Shown one piece after another: positions 1,016 to 63,411 of a stretch of DNA of 64,000 nucleotides. The stretch is from Felixounavirus LF110P1. Both the position numbers and the translations under genes were made by a program. Below the pieces are notes generated by a model that saw only the letters and a program-made list of their open reading frames with translations, was not told the origin of the DNA and did no database searches. Numbering within the stretch: the stretch's first letter is position 1; each line of letters opens with the position of its first letter. The stretch lies in the sequence record OZ035744.1, one strand, 5' to 3'.

Positions 1016-1387
1016 ATGAAGTGGCTAGAGGAAGCTTTTAAAAATAATATTGGTGCAATTGTAATTGGTATTTTTAGTGTTATTGGGATGTATACCACTA
1101 TGCAAGTTTCAAGTGGTAAACAAGAAGTGTCTGTCACAACAAAGTTACAGCAGCTAGATAATTATTCCAAAAGTAACTATTCAGCTATTCGTGATTTACA
1201 GTCTGACATGAGACTGATTCAGCTAGGGATGGAGAACCAGAAAGTTCAGTTAGAGAATGTTAAGGGTGAAAACGCAAAACTTACCAAAACTCTTGATAAA
1301 TTCTCTGACAGTGTGAATAATCTGGCTCAATCAGTATCAGCCCTCCAAGCTATTACTGAAAAGAACACAAAGAATACTGAAAAATAA
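1016..1387 (+). CDS. membrane-anchored coiled-coil protein (hypothetical)
   Basis: N-terminal TM helix (IGAIVIGIFSVIGMY) then coiled-coil-like region; RBS GGGGAGAAATAA upstream. Confidence 0.35.
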   Translation: MKWLEEAFKNNIGAIVIGIFSVIGMYTTMQVSSGKQEVSVTTKLQQLDNYSKSNYSAIRDLQSDMRLIQLGMENQKVQLENVKGENAKLTKTLDKFSDSVNNLAQSVSALQAITEKNTKNTEK

Positions 1388-4907: not shown

Positions 4908-5331
4908 AATGACCTCAAAGTTATATTAAATTTTGTATTACATTGAGTATAAAAATAAGCTATAACACCTGACTTGTCAACAGATTTTATAGCTTATTTG
5001 GCAGATTTTTTATAAGGCTACTGCCATCCTTCCATACATTACCTAACCAAGCCTAACATCACACAACCAGACCGAGCCGCACCCCGCCTTATTAAAAGAC
5101 CCTCTTAAAGACCTTTTAAAAAGGTAAGTCTCATTTTAATGTAGTTGAGACTAACTACCCATACCATACCTTACACCGCCGTACCACACCGAACATCACC
5201 AAACCATACCAAGCCAGAGCCTACTGTACCATACCGAACATCACTTAAAAACCCTCTTAGAAGACTCTTAAGTGATGCTGGTGAGTACCCGTTGGTTTAT
5301 GCTGCTCAGTATACTCACCAAATTTTCTATG

Positions 5332-5520
5332 TCAACAACTTTCTAATAAAGTTTTATGAAGACTTTGCTTAACAACCCGCCTCACATGCCTATGCTCTTT
5401 CTTAATAAAGAGTGACCTCTTCTTGACAGAGCGCCTATTCTTGTAAGTATTACTAGGATACTTATCATGAACCGGACAACAACTCCCCGGATTTGTAAAC
5501 TTGATAATCTCTCTTTTCAC
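5332..5520 (-). CDS. small basic protein (hypothetical)
   Basis: 62 aa, Lys/Arg-rich, abuts ligase gene. Confidence 0.3.
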   Translation of the reverse strand: MKREIIKFTNPGSCCPVHDKYPSNTYKNRRSVKKRSLFIKKEHRHVRRVVKQSLHKTLLESC

Positions 5521-6623
5521 TATTCATAATCCCTAATAACTAGCCCTACAGGGAACTGTAAAGACCCCTTACGAGTCATCTTCTGGAACTGAACCGTTAA
5601 AGGTTTCCCGATAAACTCTTCAGGATGTTCAGCAAGATACTGTTTCTTCTCGTGTGTAGTTTTCCATGAGACATCTACAAAGACGTTAGGAAGAGTCTCT
5701 ACAACGAACTTGCCATGACCACGTTTATCGGTCTTTACACCAGTCACTTTAAACTCTTCAGTGTGCATCTTCTTGTGCTTAATCAAGAAGTATGAACGGT
5801 GACCACACTCGTAGAAAGATTCTTCAGAGATTGAGCGGTACATTGCACCTTCAAACTTAGCTTCAACCCACTTATCATGAGCTTCATCAAACTCTTCCCA
5901 AGAATTTACACGACGAGACTTAACAGGGACAACTTTACAGCCATCTCTAAAGTCATTCAATGGTGAAGTCTCAATAATATCTCTACGCTCAGGCCACGTC
6001 TTAGTACTATCACAGATATCGTACCAGTAAAACTTAAGTAAATGTCTGTCAGGATTGTCTTCATTTTTAATCATGGAGACAATATCTTCTAAGTCCAACC
6101 CATGAGCATAGATTTCACCATCAAATTCATCAACATCTTTATGGAGCCTTAACATTGCCATAATGTCAGGTATTAGTTCAGTAGGTATTTTGTAAACAGT
6201 ATTCTCACGAGAATATGCTGTAAATACACTACCAATGCTTAAGTGCCTTGAAATCCTACAACGGACACCATCAAGTTTCGGTTGAGCATCAGCAGGGAAC
6301 TTCAGATACTTTGCATGGCTAACCTTTGCAGCATCATGAGCAAGTTGTACACCAACCTTCTCAGTGTTCTGTGCAGACTCTTTTGTGTAAGCATAACCTT
6401 TGCGGTCAACTTGCTTTTTATACTTAGCAGCAACTTCAAAGAGAGCTTGCTGTTCAGCATTACGCTCATTCTTTTTACCGATGTTCTTAGTCTCTGCTGT
6501 GTACTCTTCAAACATCATCTTACCATTTTCTTTACCGTAGGTTGTGATAACTTTGTCACCTACAGAAACACATGACCAGACATTGAAAGAGCCATCTTTA
6601 TTTTGTTTGTACAGTATTGTCAT
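5520..6623 (-). CDS. ATP-dependent DNA ligase
   Basis: adenylation motif PKLDGVRCR (KxDG); start placed at internal ATG (MTILYKQNK) preceded by GAGGA RBS rather than the track start 6659. Confidence 0.85.
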   Translation of the reverse strand: MTILYKQNKDGSFNVWSCVSVGDKVITTYGKENGKMMFEEYTAETKNIGKKNERNAEQQALFEVAAKYKKQVDRKGYAYTKESAQNTEKVGVQLAHDAAKVSHAKYLKFPADAQPKLDGVRCRISRHLSIGSVFTAYSRENTVYKIPTELIPDIMAMLRLHKDVDEFDGEIYAHGLDLEDIVSMIKNEDNPDRHLLKFYWYDICDSTKTWPERRDIIETSPLNDFRDGCKVVPVKSRRVNSWEEFDEAHDKWVEAKFEGAMYRSISEESFYECGHRSYFLIKHKKMHTEEFKVTGVKTDKRGHGKFVVETLPNVFVDVSWKTTHEKKQYLAEHPEEFIGKPLTVQFQKMTRKGSLQFPVGLVIRDYE

Positions 6624-36505: not shown

Positions 36506-37054
36506 ATGAAGAAATTGATTCTAGGTTTGTGCTTAATGTTTACAGCACACTTATCTTATGCAGTTGACTGCCCAGAGCTATCAATTAGCCAAAAAGTAAA
36601 CATGTTAAAAGCTTACCAGTATGGTGAGAACAACATGGGTAAAGGTTGGGGTATCACTCTAGCTGCTATAGCCTTACAAGAGTCAGAGTTAGGTCTGAAG
36701 GTAGAGAATAAAAAGACACATGATTATGGTATTTTCCAGAATCACTTGAAGACTGTTGTAAAGCGTAACAAAATTAGCCCTAATGTGGCTAAAAAGAAAC
36801 TCTTAAAAGACTTTGACTATGCTGCAAAGGAAACGCACAAAGAGCTTGAGTTTTGGACAAAGGTACATGGTCAGCCAAAGTCAAAGAAGACTTTACAAAA
36901 AGTTTTAGCATCATATAATGCTGGGTATTCGTACAGAATCCCTAAAGCTAAGAAGTATTCTCAAGATGTCTATAACAACATGAAAGTTATTGCTCAATGT
37001 GAATTTGCAACAAACATTTCTAAGGTAAATCATGAAAAAATTAAGAAAGTCTGA
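36506..37054 (+). CDS. secreted lytic transglycosylase-like protein (candidate)
   Basis: signal peptide MKKLILGLCLMFTAHLSYA; SLT-like motifs ALQESELGL, GIFQN, SYNAG. Confidence 0.45.
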   Translation: MKKLILGLCLMFTAHLSYAVDCPELSISQKVNMLKAYQYGENNMGKGWGITLAAIALQESELGLKVENKKTHDYGIFQNHLKTVVKRNKISPNVAKKKLLKDFDYAAKETHKELEFWTKVHGQPKSKKTLQKVLASYNAGYSYRIPKAKKYSQDVYNNMKVIAQCEFATNISKVNHEKIKKV

Positions 37055-37737: not shown

Positions 37738-38202
37738 ATGAACAATATCATTACGGTAGCACTGGACGTTACGGCAAACAAATCTGAAGTAGTTCGTAAC
37801 ATTATCAAGAGCAACTTTGAGGGTAAAATCTTCCGTGCTGTCAACGTAAAAGCAGACGGTAACATCCGAGAGTATCGTGCTCTTTTGAATGTTAAGAAAC
37901 ACGTAAAGGGTTCTGGCTCAACCACAGCACACAAAGAAAACCTGATGACTATCTATGATATGGGGATGGCTTCAGAATTAGGTGCTGAAGGTATCGTTAA
38001 AGAAGGTGCTCCGTATCGCTCTTTCAATCTGGAAACTGCTCTTATGCTTTCCTTTACAAGTGGTTCTAAAACAACTACTTATCTCTTTACTGATGCTGCA
38101 ACGGTATCTGCTATCAAGGATAGCACTGTCAAAGCTGGGGTAGCTGCTGCTGCAAAAGCTTCTTCGATGGCTGCAAATGTCCTTGCTAAAGTCCTCGGTT
38201 AA
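37738..38202 (+). CDS. hypothetical protein
   Basis: 154 aa ORF. Confidence 0.4.
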   Translation: MNNIITVALDVTANKSEVVRNIIKSNFEGKIFRAVNVKADGNIREYRALLNVKKHVKGSGSTTAHKENLMTIYDMGMASELGAEGIVKEGAPYRSFNLETALMLSFTSGSKTTTYLFTDAATVSAIKDSTVKAGVAAAAKASSMAANVLAKVLG

Positions 38203-38214
38203 GGTTAAGATACA

Positions 38215-38236
38215 GGCTCCTTCGGGAGCCTTTTTC
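38215..38236 (+). terminator. rho-independent terminator
   Basis: GGCTCC-TTCG-GGAGCC then TTTTT. Confidence 0.6.
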
Positions 38237-38254
38237 ATTTCAGGAGATTGTTAA

Positions 38255-38602
38255 ATGACATTTAAAGAGTTCTGTCAAGCTACTTTCATAATTGTTTTCT
38301 TAGTTGGGGCAGGTGTCTGGGGAGGATACTCTTACAGAGACTATCAAGTTGCTGAAACTGAGCTAAACAATCAAAAGCTCATAAGTGTTGCTAAAGATGC
38401 TTATCAGGAAGGATTAGTCACACTGAGCACCAATTACAAAAATGATTTGAAAGATGTGCTTGCTAAGAATAAGCATACAAAAGAGGTACTAACATATGAA
38501 AAAACTAAGCCAGAGTTTTATAATGTTTGTGTTACTGATAACTATGTCAGGGTGTTCAACGAACAAAGTGAACAGTACATTCAAAAACTCCCAAGTAAGT
38601 GA
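38255..38602 (+). CDS. i-spanin-like protein (candidate)
   Basis: N-terminal TM helix (FIIVFLVGAGVWGGY) with periplasmic-type remainder; next ORF is embedded out of frame. Confidence 0.4.
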   Translation: MTFKEFCQATFIIVFLVGAGVWGGYSYRDYQVAETELNNQKLISVAKDAYQEGLVTLSTNYKNDLKDVLAKNKHTKEVLTYEKTKPEFYNVCVTDNYVRVFNEQSEQYIQKLPSK

Positions 38603-38765
38603 GAGTGATAAGTACACTCAAGAAGAGTCACGGTATATCATCAAAGGCAACACAGGCAGCGATGTAGCAGAAGCACTTGAGTTCTACCGTGACGGCTTTT
38701 ACCAGTGTACAATTAAAGCTAATAACCTTATTGACATGATTTTATTAGGGAATAAGCAGCAATGA
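38496..38765 (+). CDS. o-spanin-like lipoprotein (candidate)
   Basis: lipoprotein signal with lipobox (LLITMSGC); starts inside previous ORF in another frame. Confidence 0.4.
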   Translation: MKKLSQSFIMFVLLITMSGCSTNKVNSTFKNSQVSESDKYTQEESRYIIKGNTGSDVAEALEFYRDGFYQCTIKANNLIDMILLGNKQQ

Positions 38766-52991: not shown

Positions 52992-53456
52992 TTACTTTGG
53001 ATATACACTGTCAAGATAAATGTCAGCTTCCATTCTACGTCTGTTTTTCAGGCCGTTTGAAGTGACCTTCTTACCTTTTACTGTAACCTTGTTCCACCAC
53101 TGCATAGCTTCTGCACAACCGACCTTATTACCAGCATTGTGGCGCTTGATAAATGTAGAGTCCTGCATAGCTGTGATACCAATGTTGTATGTTTCACTTA
53201 CAAGTGCATCAAACTCATTCTGAGAAGTTGGAACCTTGATGGCTTTGTTCACTGCTGCAACGAACTTTTCAACATCTGCAAGAAGATACTGTTCAGCTTG
53301 TTCAGCGGTAATCTTCATACCCATCTTAACAGGTTTTCCGTCAATACGGATTGTCCCATACCCAATTGTTGGGATTCCGGCAGAGTCTTCGTAAGCCTCT
53401 AACTTCAGACCTTCGAAGAACTTAATAGCATCTAAACCTTTTCTTGAGAGTTGCAT
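52992..53456 (-). CDS. lysozyme (glycoside hydrolase family 24, endolysin)
   Basis: N-terminus FEGLKLEAYEDSAGIPTIGYGT matches the GH24 phage-lysozyme signature (catalytic E, TIGxG). Confidence 0.8.
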   Translation of the reverse strand: MQLSRKGLDAIKFFEGLKLEAYEDSAGIPTIGYGTIRIDGKPVKMGMKITAEQAEQYLLADVEKFVAAVNKAIKVPTSQNEFDALVSETYNIGITAMQDSTFIKRHNAGNKVGCAEAMQWWNKVTVKGKKVTSNGLKNRRRMEADIYLDSVYPK

Positions 53457-54340
53457 TATGCCTCCCCTGCTGGATTAACTGTAACTGTTGCTGCATTAGA
53501 TGTTACAGAGCCACCTGCGCCAGTCACTACACAGGTGTAGCTTCCTGCATCAGCAGCGGTTGCACCTTCTTTGGTGTAAGTTGCAGCAGTTGCGTCTGGG
53601 ATGACTTCCTCACCTTTCTTCCACTGATAACCTGTCGCACCTGTTGCCACAACATTCAGTGTTAAGGTCTCACCTTCAGTGATTTCTTGATTGGTTGGTT
53701 GCTGAGTGATTACCGGAAGTGCATTCACAGTCACTGTTGCTGCATCTGAGGTAACACTTGTTCCACCCTCTCCAGATACAACACAAGTGTATGAACCAGC
53801 GTCAGAAGGTGCTACTGACTGTTTTGTGTAAGTTGCAGAATTGGCACTAGGGATGTCCTCACCATCCTTCTTCCACTGATATCCAGTGGCGTTAGTTGCT
53901 AGAATGCTTAGAGTAAGTGTACCCCCTTCATTTACTGTTTGATTGGTTGGTTGCTGAGTGATTGTTGGTGGTGTGATGACATCTTTCAACTTAGCATTCA
54001 ACATTGAGAACGGCTTAACTCTTGCCAACCATTCACAGTAAATTGTGTCAACATCTTTACCATTGATGATTGCATACTGCAAATCCATGAAGAAATCAGC
54101 AGTTCTCATCTGTGCACCAACACTGTAAAGCAATTCATCACTAAATGGAACTTTGTAGTCTGGTTTGTAGTCAAACTTCTCAACTTCTGCAATATCAGCT
54201 TCAGGCCAATATGAACTATAGGTAAGTGGTAAAATAGCCTCTTGATATGTTCTAAAATCATATCTCTTACCAACCTTTACGTTTGCAATGAAGCCCTTCA
54301 CAAACTCTTTAAAGTCTGGGTAAGTCTTTGCTTTAATCAT
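53456..54340 (-). CDS. Ig-like domain protein (two tandem Ig-like repeats)
   Basis: two about 90-aa repeats (ITQQPTNQ...GYQWKK...AGSYTCVV); N-terminal 120 aa paralogous to the upstream ORF. Confidence 0.6.
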   Translation of the reverse strand: MIKAKTYPDFKEFVKGFIANVKVGKRYDFRTYQEAILPLTYSSYWPEADIAEVEKFDYKPDYKVPFSDELLYSVGAQMRTADFFMDLQYAIINGKDVDTIYCEWLARVKPFSMLNAKLKDVITPPTITQQPTNQTVNEGGTLTLSILATNATGYQWKKDGEDIPSANSATYTKQSVAPSDAGSYTCVVSGEGGTSVTSDAATVTVNALPVITQQPTNQEITEGETLTLNVVATGATGYQWKKGEEVIPDATAATYTKEGATAADAGSYTCVVTGAGGSVTSNAATVTVNPAGEA

Positions 54341-62657: not shown

Positions 62658-62676
62658 CCAATTTCAAAGGTGCTTA

Positions 62677-63411
62677 ATGAAAGAGATGACAGAACAAGGT
62701 AAGGAGATTTTTAATCTCTTAAAAACCGGTAAAGGGTTTTCTAACCCACTTATTACTGGTGCAGCAGTTCTCGGTGGAACCGTAGCTGCTTCTACATCAC
62801 TTGTAAGCTCTATTAGTTCTGTAACAGACCCTACAATGCAGGAGAAACTTGTTGCTGCTGGACTTACAACAGTCCTTCTAAACAGCTTTACAACAAGCCT
62901 TACAAGCACTACAGCAACTACTAAGACCCTGACAGACTACGGTCAAAAATCTATTGATGAGTTTTCATCACGTATGCAGGTAGCAAAGGGATATTCCAAT
63001 GTTATGGGTGCAGCAGGAGAACAAGTTGGTTGTACACCGTTCAGTGGTATTATGGGTGTTGCTACAGAATATGGTCAAAAAGCTATTGATACGATTAACA
63101 GTACACTAGAGAGTGTTAACGATGTATTAAGTTACTTACAAGACGCTATTGACAAGGGTCTTGATACTGTTTCTGATTTAGCTAACCAAGCTGTCAGTAA
63201 GATTAATGAAGGTATCTCAAAGATTACAGCTTATGCAGATGAAGTTGTGCAGATGATTGAAGAAGAAGCTGCCCTTATTGCAGAGTACCTTAAAACGAAT
63301 ATCAATGGGTTCTTAGCAGGTATCTTACCAGACTGGTTTGATGATGCCTGTAAAACTGGTGTAATTGACACTATTGCAACACCAGAAATGAAGAACGCAT
63401 TACAGAAATAA
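62677..63411 (+). CDS. Ser/Thr-rich hypothetical protein
   Basis: track ORF 62614-63411 begins inside tRNA-Phe; more likely start is the internal ATG (MKEMTEQ) after AAAGGTG. Confidence 0.45.
   Translation: MKEMTEQGKEIFNLLKTGKGFSNPLITGAAVLGGTVAASTSLVSSISSVTDPTMQEKLVAAGLTTVLLNSFTTSLTSTTATTKTLTDYGQKSIDEFSSRMQVAKGYSNVMGAAGEQVGCTPFSGIMGVATEYGQKAIDTINSTLESVNDVLSYLQDAIDKGLDTVSDLANQAVSKINEGISKITAYADEVVQMIEEEAALIAEYLKTNINGFLAGILPDWFDDACKTGVIDTIATPEMKNALQK

Follow-up and report, generated by a model that had tools for sequence, protein, structure and literature searches.

The 64,000-nucleotide stretch of DNA analyzed here (Felixounavirus LF110P1, sequence record OZ035744.1; hereafter the window) contains two ORFs, at 38255-38602 and 38496-38765, that overlap in different frames and lie far from the endolysin gene. 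An earlier note read them as an i-spanin/o-spanin unit, raising the question of whether the pair is indeed a two-component spanin and, if so, to which of the known kinds it belongs. Based on our sequence analysis, the two ORFs are very probably the genes of a two-component spanin from a Felix O1-like myovirus. The find is an ordinary one, as the pair is already known and was catalogued in the 2018 spanin census (Kongari 2018, PMC6139136; BMC Bioinformatics 19:326). Both ORFs were recovered exactly where the earlier note had placed them, stop codons included, and the features of the locus are as follows.

38214..38231, + strand: predicted terminator-like GC-rich hairpin, AGGCTCC-TTCG-GGAGCCT, followed by a T-run (scan match).
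38242..38246, + strand: i-spanin Shine-Dalgarno sequence AGGAG, 8 nt before the ATG.
38255..38602, + strand: probable i-spanin gene, 115 aa, with an N-terminal TM helix at about residues 6-24 and a predicted periplasmic, mostly helical domain at residues 28-115.
38483..38487, + strand: o-spanin Shine-Dalgarno sequence GAGGT, 8 nt before the ATG and within the i-spanin coding sequence.
38496..38765, + strand: probable o-spanin gene, an 89-aa precursor with a predicted 19-residue lipoprotein signal peptide and a 70-residue mature part.
38496..38602, + strand: dual-coding overlap of 107 nt, with the two reading frames one apart.

The region is that of a Felixounavirus. In the 3 kb around the pair, identity is 98% to Escherichia phage Andreotti and 90% or more to over 200 Felixounavirus genomes, and GenBank records of near-identical phages annotate an i-spanin and an o-spanin at this locus. 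The first product is identical to Felix O1 p014 at 115 of 115 residues, and the second to p015 at 88 of 89 (E59 here, A59 in Felix O1). In the curated tables of Kongari 2018 (PMC6139136), Felix01 (NC_005282) appears in files 2, 5 and 6 with the architecture 'ovl', an i-spanin p014 of 115 aa at 5330-5678, an o-spanin p015 of 89 aa at 5571-5841, a TMSG lipobox, a 19-residue signal and one periplasmic Cys per subunit. The RBSs marked there for p014 and p015 are the same as those preceding the two ORFs here, and supplementary file 5 gives an equal 107-nt overlap for Felix01 and wV8. With RBSs, overlap, lipobox, signal length and Cys count all equal, nothing of substance differs between the window pair and that of Felix O1, as befits another Felixounavirus isolate.

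Profile searches place the proteins in the same family. The i-spanin matches PHROG 1152 'Rz-like spanin' at 1.1e-41; the o-spanin matches PHROG 4180, labelled 'unknown function', at 1.3e-50 and, weakly, PHROG 456 'Rz-like spanin' (1.6e-4). Both subunits thereby fall by sequence within the JH2/Felix O1 family (PHROG 1152 and PHROG 4180). Kongari 2018 (PMC6139136, Tables 3 and 4) counts 15 members in the overlapped 'JH2' i-spanin family, among them Felix01, wV8, Moogle, Mushroom and phiEco32, and 11 in the 'JH2' o-spanin family. Scans of both proteins against Pfam and NCBIfam matched no spanin model and gave no family above cut-off, the only matches being sub-threshold ones of the lipoprotein signal to unrelated lipoprotein models. 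Together, the matches to p014 and p015, PHROG 1152 and the GenBank labels in near-identical phages support the i-spanin/o-spanin reading.

The N-terminal TM helix that had been noticed in ORF 38255-38602 was found again, as one hydrophobic segment close to the N-terminal end; among 19-residue Kyte-Doolittle windows, the highest mean (1.75) is that of residues 6-24 (FCQATFIIVFLVGAGVWGG). From the lambda and T4 spanins, the protein is inferred to be anchored N-in/C-out in the inner membrane. Its AF2 model has helices at residues 39-59, 65-79, 85-92 and 95-111, at a mean pLDDT of 62.6, which is low confidence; a search of a large protein database gave just 15 close relatives (52-97% identity), a shallow alignment for AF2. 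Kongari 2018 (PMC6139136, file 3) predicts 66% helix for the periplasmic domain of the Felix O1 i-spanin. Thus hydropathy, the modest-confidence AF2 model and the published helix content agree on the N-terminal TMD and largely alpha-helical periplasmic domain that characterize an i-spanin of the two-component class. The earlier note would have given up the assignment if neither a lipobox nor a coiled coil were predicted. The lipobox is present, but supplementary file 4 of Kongari 2018 (PMC6139136) lists zero coiled-coil segments for the i-spanins of Felix01, wV8 and FSL_SP-010; such segments are common in i-spanins but do not occur in all of them. As several other accepted i-spanins likewise score zero in part of that file, the absent coiled coil does not refute a spanin assignment.

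For the second ORF, the start is the first possible start codon past an in-frame stop at 38490. The N-terminus of its product reads MKKLSQSFIMFVLLITMSG/CST, the slash marking the predicted cleavage site, with two Lys in the first seven residues, an uncharged hydrophobic core and TMSG before Cys20. This sequence satisfies a PROSITE PS51257-style pattern rule, in agreement with the lipoprotein signal and Cys lipobox described before. The residue at +2 is Ser and not Asp, as expected of an o-spanin lipobox, and therefore under the +2 rule the protein would carry no inner-membrane retention signal. The mature part of 70 residues has no proline. A low-confidence AF2 model from the single sequence (pLDDT 70.3) has a predicted C-terminal helix and renders the signal peptide as a strand. 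Across the six frames of the window, the lipobox rule is satisfied by three ORFs of at least 40 codons, whereas shuffled sequences contain 1.2 on average. Besides the o-spanin, these are a GTG-start ORF at 62664-62909 and one that starts with TTG and runs antisense to the gene at 53456-54340. Since the lipobox motif alone is not significant against shuffles, the case for the o-spanin rests on its conservation.

ORF 38496-38765 does begin inside ORF 38255-38602 in another frame, namely +1, but the word 'embedded' in the title of the earlier note does not hold: the first ORF stops at 38602 and the second runs on for another 163 nt, to 38765, and the arrangement is therefore overlapped, like LysB/LysC of P2. 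Adjacency of the genes in an embedded, overlapped or separated layout is a mark of two-component spanins, and the overlapped form is the one found here. The shared 107 nt encode residues 81-115 of the i-spanin, which include its most conserved motif, and residues 1-36 of the o-spanin, which take in the signal peptide, the lipobox and the first mature residues. Divergence from Citrobacter phage Mijalis is 0.10 in the overlap versus 0.26 and 0.31 on either side of it, where a single frame is coding, and from SUSP1 0.11 versus 0.22 and 0.24. Substitutions relative to Mijalis fall at codon positions 1/2/3 in the numbers 13/10/39 for the i-spanin-only part and 10/5/34 for the o-spanin-only part; the same position-3 bias is seen in the comparison with SUSP1 (24 of 38 in the o-spanin-only part). 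Given this bias and the conservation, both frames are translated and under purifying selection by the sequence record, with the overlap doubly constrained.

The pair is also retained well beyond Felixounavirus. By tblastn, the i-spanin is found in 401 phage records and the o-spanin in 356, the latter down to about 30% identity. We compared 12 loci from seven genera (Felixounavirus, Mooglevirus, Suspvirus, Kolesnikvirus, Kuravirus, Nonanavirus and Gorganvirus). All 12 have the +1-frame overlap, the lipobox Cys and, in either subunit, one periplasmic Cys; an intact TMD is seen in 11 of them, the KMM4 record being the exception. Kept throughout are an i-spanin C-terminal motif, EK..P.F.N.C.[ST]..Y...[FY]N, which in the window protein is EKTKPEFYNVCVTDNYVRVFNEQ and holds Cys92, and in the o-spanin an MK(K/R)L start and a C-terminal motif, [YF]..C....N.L[IVL][DE], here LEFYRDGFYQCTIKANNLIDMI with Cys71. 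The periplasmic cysteines looked for in a spanin pair are thus Cys92 and Cys71, invariant across the seven genera. In Salmonella phage 9NA the homologous pair lies directly 3' of the holin gene gp56, the endolysin gene gp57 and a membrane protein gene. The i-spanin there, gp59, matches PHROG 1152 at 1.4e-26 and the window i-spanin at a BLASTP E-value of 5e-7; the overlapping lipoprotein ORF is without annotation in the record and is detected by phmmer at 7.5e-10. The position of the 9NA pair in a canonical lysis cassette ties the family to lysis and not to another membrane function.

In the window, the candidate lysis genes are instead scattered, as follows.

52992..53456, - strand: endolysin, a GH24 phage lysozyme of 154 aa (PF00959, 6.6e-41; PHROG 7 endolysin, 7.5e-58).
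36506..37054, + strand: SLT-like protein of 182 aa, predicted to be secreted, with a putative lysis role.
1016..1387, + strand: homologue of the 'putative holin' of Citrobacter phage Moogle, 123 aa with one N-terminal TM helix, 37 kb from the spanin genes.

The GH24 lysozyme that had been placed about 14 kb away on the opposite strand is indeed there, 14.2 kb downstream, and is annotated 'lysin' in phage garuso. The claim of an SLT-like secreted protein 1.7 kb upstream stood in part. ORF 36506-37054 is present with a signal-peptide-like N-terminus and ES, GIFQ and YNAG motifs, which we take to be a family-1 lytic-transglycosylase pattern, but its match to the Pfam SLT model (9.2e-4, 19.2 bits) is below the curated cut-off of 21.3. 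It also matches PHROG 600, labelled unknown function, gave no match in a sequence search of the PDB, and is annotated 'putative lysin' in Andreotti and garuso. ORF 1016-1387 matches CPT_Moogle54 'putative holin' with 90% identity (E 9e-84), has one hydrophobic segment and belongs to PHROG 4038, labelled unknown function; its holin role is putative and follows from that annotation. As PHROG scans of the window's small membrane proteins gave no family annotated as holin, this homology is the sole holin lead in the window.

Locally, the gene order is rIIA, rIIB, the secreted SLT-like protein, polynucleotide kinase, a hypothetical gene, i-spanin, o-spanin, small hypothetical genes and a macro-domain protein. 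The hairpin at 38214-38231 falls between the upstream gene (37738-38202) and the i-spanin RBS, and the equivalent site is annotated 'terminator' in Mijalis. According to the Felix O1 genome paper (PMC3185647), transcription may either pass such terminators by read-through or start anew from downstream promoters. The same paper reports the absence of holin-lysin cassettes and, in a parallel with T4, the lack of a holin gene next to the lysin. The dispersal of lysis genes that the earlier note had suspected is therefore real and already published for Felix O1-like phages, namely Felix O1 (PMC3185647) and Moogle. As is the case for all Felix O1-like phages, the spanin genes are not part of a lysis cassette.

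Other explanations of the locus can be weighed against these data. One of them takes ORF 38496-38765 to be open by chance, leaving the 115-aa protein as the one real product. In its favor, lipobox-like patterns turn up at random about once per window, and several GenBank records omit the ORF or start it internally. ORF 38496-38765 is, however, the sole + strand ORF over 38603-38761 and has a strong RBS, its unique part takes substitutions at its own codon position 3 in 34 of 49 cases against Mijalis and 24 of 38 against SUSP1, and its invariant lipobox Cys persists in the phage records down to about 30% identity. We rejected this reading, the probability of which is as good as nil, as the conservation data contradict it. 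Membership of the true lambda Rz/Rz1 family in a classic embedded arrangement, as the earlier note had it, is also highly improbable. The topology signals are of the same kind, a TMD protein with an out-of-frame lipoprotein, and the PHROG labels carry the generic name 'Rz-like spanin'. However, neither protein found a spanin family in Pfam even at E<=1, where both gave weak, unrelated sub-threshold matches, and the mature o-spanin, proline-free and 70 residues long, is predicted to be helical. Kongari 2018 (PMC6139136) moreover has a separate overlapped JH2 family and no family mixing embedded with other architectures. With the o-spanin stop codon 163 nt beyond that of the i-spanin, the coordinates contradict an embedded layout, and Rz/Rz1 membership was rejected.

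A third reading is a function outside lysis. Under this scenario, the lipoprotein would be of the superinfection-exclusion or receptor-masking type, like Llp of T5 or Cor, next to an unrelated small membrane protein, with the overlap a result of incidental packing. The genes do lie among early/middle-type genes (rIIA, rIIB, polynucleotide kinase, macro-domain protein) and not beside the endolysin, and PHROG 4180, the o-spanin's own family, bears no functional label. Prior experimental spanin work, moreover, was essentially all on lambda Rz/Rz1, to which Kongari 2018 (PMC6139136) adds tests of T4 PseT.3/PseT.2. Incidental packing, however, fits poorly with the same +1 overlap being kept across seven unrelated phage genera, and location loses force given that in T4, too, the spanin genes adjoin pseT and the lysozyme (e) and holin (t) genes are distant. 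The partner protein belongs to a PHROG annotated as spanin, and the conserved C-terminal motifs with an invariant Cys in both proteins are as expected of interacting periplasmic domains. An exclusion lipoprotein is thus distinctly improbable, if less so than the two readings above, and it was rejected on the conserved paired overlap, the holin-endolysin cassette of 9NA and the spanin PHROG.

If the pair is a two-component spanin, as we favor, it would likely act as follows. By its sequence, the i-spanin gene encodes a small protein that is anchored in the membrane at its N-terminus and mostly helical in its C-terminal domain, and the o-spanin is translated from its own RBS inside the i-spanin gene, in the +1 frame, as a lipoprotein precursor. 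The remaining steps are inferred from the lambda Rz/Rz1 and T4 PseT.3/PseT.2 paradigms (Kongari 2018, PMC6139136). Signal peptidase II would cut the o-spanin before Cys20, and the lipidated 70-residue protein would go to the outer membrane, on its inner leaflet, while the i-spanin would sit in the inner membrane and extend its C-terminal domain into the periplasm. The two subunits may then bind each other through their conserved C-terminal motifs, giving a complex that spans the periplasm through the peptidoglycan mesh and may be stabilized by an intermolecular disulfide involving Cys92 and Cys71. Once the holin has acted, the peptidoglycan would be cleared by the GH24 endolysin, whose gene lies 14 kb away, and the freed spanin complexes would collapse and fuse the inner and outer membranes, removing the last barrier to virion release.

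With the pair catalogued in 2018 and the scattered lysis layout of Felix O1 noted since 2010-2015, the locus carries little weight as a discovery. Its practical value is for the annotation of Felixounavirus records, in many of which the GenBank entry begins the o-spanin at an internal codon, so that the signal peptide is lost, labels the wrong ORF or calls the gene 'hypothetical'. As Felix O1-like phages are widely proposed for biocontrol of Salmonella and E. coli, correct annotation of lysis genes has some applied value. Separately, one comparative paper inferred from such annotation that a phage lacks an o-spanin; an intact gene is present there.

Among known systems other than Felix O1 itself, the overlapped prototype, P2 LysB/LysC, has the same architecture as the window pair: toward its 3' end the i-spanin gene contains the +1-frame start of the o-spanin gene, which runs on past the i-spanin stop. 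In sequence it belongs to another family, that of P2 and KS14 as opposed to JH2 (Kongari 2018, PMC6139136). The likeness to lambda Rz/Rz1 would be one of functional logic, in which an inner-membrane type II protein and an out-of-frame outer-membrane lipoprotein, disulfide-linked, act after the endolysin. Rz1 is about 40 residues long and proline-rich, and lies wholly within Rz, whereas the window pair is overlapped and outside a lysis cassette, its o-spanin longer and without proline, and its i-spanin without a predicted coiled coil in the Kongari scan of Felix O1.

The T4 pair PseT.3/PseT.2 resembles the window pair in its surroundings, as it too neighbors a polynucleotide kinase gene, pseT, and is remote from endolysin and holin. 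The proteins are of similar size (117 and 99 aa in the GenBank annotation of T4, 115 and 89 here), and a C-terminal o-spanin helix is predicted in both. The T4 genes, however, are of the separated architecture, sharing only 4 nt, and lie in the opposite order with respect to pseT; in T4 the o-spanin carries two Cys and the i-spanin none, compared with one per subunit here. BLASTP against the T4 proteins gave no alignment for the i-spanin and one in the signal peptide alone for the o-spanin (E 0.032), and the PHROGs differ (739 and 812 in T4, 1152 and 4180 here). By sequence the pair is thus not a member of the T4 family, and the shared pseT neighborhood is therefore positional and does not speak for common descent.

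The pairs of 9NA (Nonanavirus), the Kuraviruses phiEco32 and SU10, the phiEa21-4-like Kolesnikviruses and Gorganvirus resemble the window pair in the PHROG 1152 i-spanin, the +1 overlap, the Cys motifs and the MK(K/R)L start. They differ in being only 25-35% identical to it, and in 9NA the genes form a holin-endolysin-spanin cassette whereas the window pair is isolated. In Kongari 2018 (PMC6139136), 9NA and phiEa21-4 each stand for a family of their own, and the phiEco32 o-spanins are kept apart from JH2 as a group. In our searches, phmmer E-values of 1e-7 to 1e-15, obtained against small per-locus ORF sets, and an alignment of the two Cys-containing C-terminal motifs link the JH2, 9NA, phiEa21-4-like and phiEco32-like pairs, so that the four groups may form one superfamily, a link that is reasonably supported by sequence. 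[quoted passage not shown] That the four groups are one superfamily and that such a bond staples its periplasm-spanning complex is, as a combined proposal, unlikely. The proposed bond would set these spanins apart from those of lambda and T4, for both of which homotypic disulfides have been shown.

The o-spanin (window 38496-38765) is annotated inconsistently among the GenBank records of Felixounavirus genomes, as seen in the loci of four relatives:

L001 5143-5364: Andreotti, o-spanin as annotated from an internal ATG in the GenBank record
L003 22145-22366: garuso, o-spanin as annotated from an internal ATG in the GenBank record
L002 2856-3632: vB_Si_35FD, mislabelled spanin region in the GenBank record
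L015 2097-2366: vB_Si_DR094, o-spanin, intact ORF

In Andreotti and garuso, the annotated o-spanin begins at the equivalent of window position 38544 ('MSGCS...') and, because the start was placed at this internal ATG, is without a signal peptide. The GenBank annotation of vB_Si_35FD gives the name 'i-spanin' to a truncated o-spanin ORF and 'o-spanin' to an unrelated 89-aa ORF downstream, leaving the true i-spanin gene named merely 'hypothetical'. Phage vB_Si_DR094 was published as having an i-spanin only (PMC8300805). That claim is an annotation artefact, since the phage carries an o-spanin ORF identical in sequence to Felix O1 p015, of which an internal fragment alone is annotated, as hypothetical.

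The i-spanin homologue of Citrobacter phage BSwM KMM4 (L010 995-1324) is unannotated in its record and has a scrambled, non-hydrophobic N-terminus (MSSSFCNHFLNRCWCL...). The o-spanin of this phage is intact. The pattern points to a frameshift in the TMD-coding part of the i-spanin gene, which may be genuine or may stem from an error in sequencing.

Upstream of the i-spanin gene lies a possible transcription signal:

38214-38231: terminator-like hairpin and T-run, 24 nt 5' of the i-spanin start codon

The equivalent hairpin site in Citrobacter phage Mijalis bears a terminator annotation. The gap between hairpin and start codon is too short for a promoter, so expression of the spanin genes probably depends either on read-through or on a promoter farther away.

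Two further genes of the window may be involved in lysis:

36506-37054, + strand: secreted 182-aa protein, 'putative lysin' in the annotation of some relatives
1016-1387, + strand: protein of 123 aa, single transmembrane helix at the N-terminus, 90% identity to the annotated 'putative holin' of Citrobacter phage Moogle

For the secreted protein, a sub-threshold match is the sole Pfam support for SLT. Its translation has ES, GIFQ and YNAG motifs, which we take to resemble those of a lytic transglycosylase. The product would be a putative second enzyme of murein degradation, distinct from the GH24 endolysin and carrying a signal peptide of its own, and may act in lysis, in entry or in another process. 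The product of 1016-1387 belongs to PHROG 4038, labelled unknown function. Other holin candidates, gp79, gp116, gp118, gp119 and gp131, were named in the genome paper of Felix O1 (PMC3185647). As these differ from the homologue of the Moogle protein, holin identity in the Felix O1-like group appears unsettled.

Downstream of the spanin region, window 40980-46430 holds two families of repeated intergenic modules of 60-90 nt, located 5' of many small + strand genes. Examples are:

41441-41528, 41913-42000, 42293-42380, 43899-43986: repeat modules
40984-41047, 43633-43696, 44857-44920, 46018-46081: repeat modules

Each combines a conserved AT-rich box (AAAGTACTTTACA or TCAAC-type) with a GC-rich hairpin (GGGGCTTA...TAAGCCCC or GGGGAGGGAATGACCTTCCCC), and the ribosome-binding and start region is likewise conserved (CCTAAACT-GGAG-ATTCAAAAATG). 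The modules have the appearance of promoter/hairpin/RBS cassettes repeated through a region of early genes.

Between these modules and the spanin genes are:

39756-40541, + strand: protein of 261 aa, macro domain at the N-terminus (PF01661, 3.9e-7)
40571-40612: strong terminator-like hairpin, between the macro-domain gene and the repeats that follow

Directly 3' of this gene and hairpin, three to four tandem-like copies of a ~34-nt unit (CTCCAAAGAG...TCATTTTCAAA.TGTGCAG) occupy non-coding DNA (40615-40805). Homologues of the macro-domain protein are annotated 'putative phosphatase' in relatives. The spanin-macro gene neighbourhood recurs in an unrelated podovirus, as Kuravirus SU10 also has a macro-domain gene ('Appr-1-p processing') directly downstream of its homologous spanin pair.
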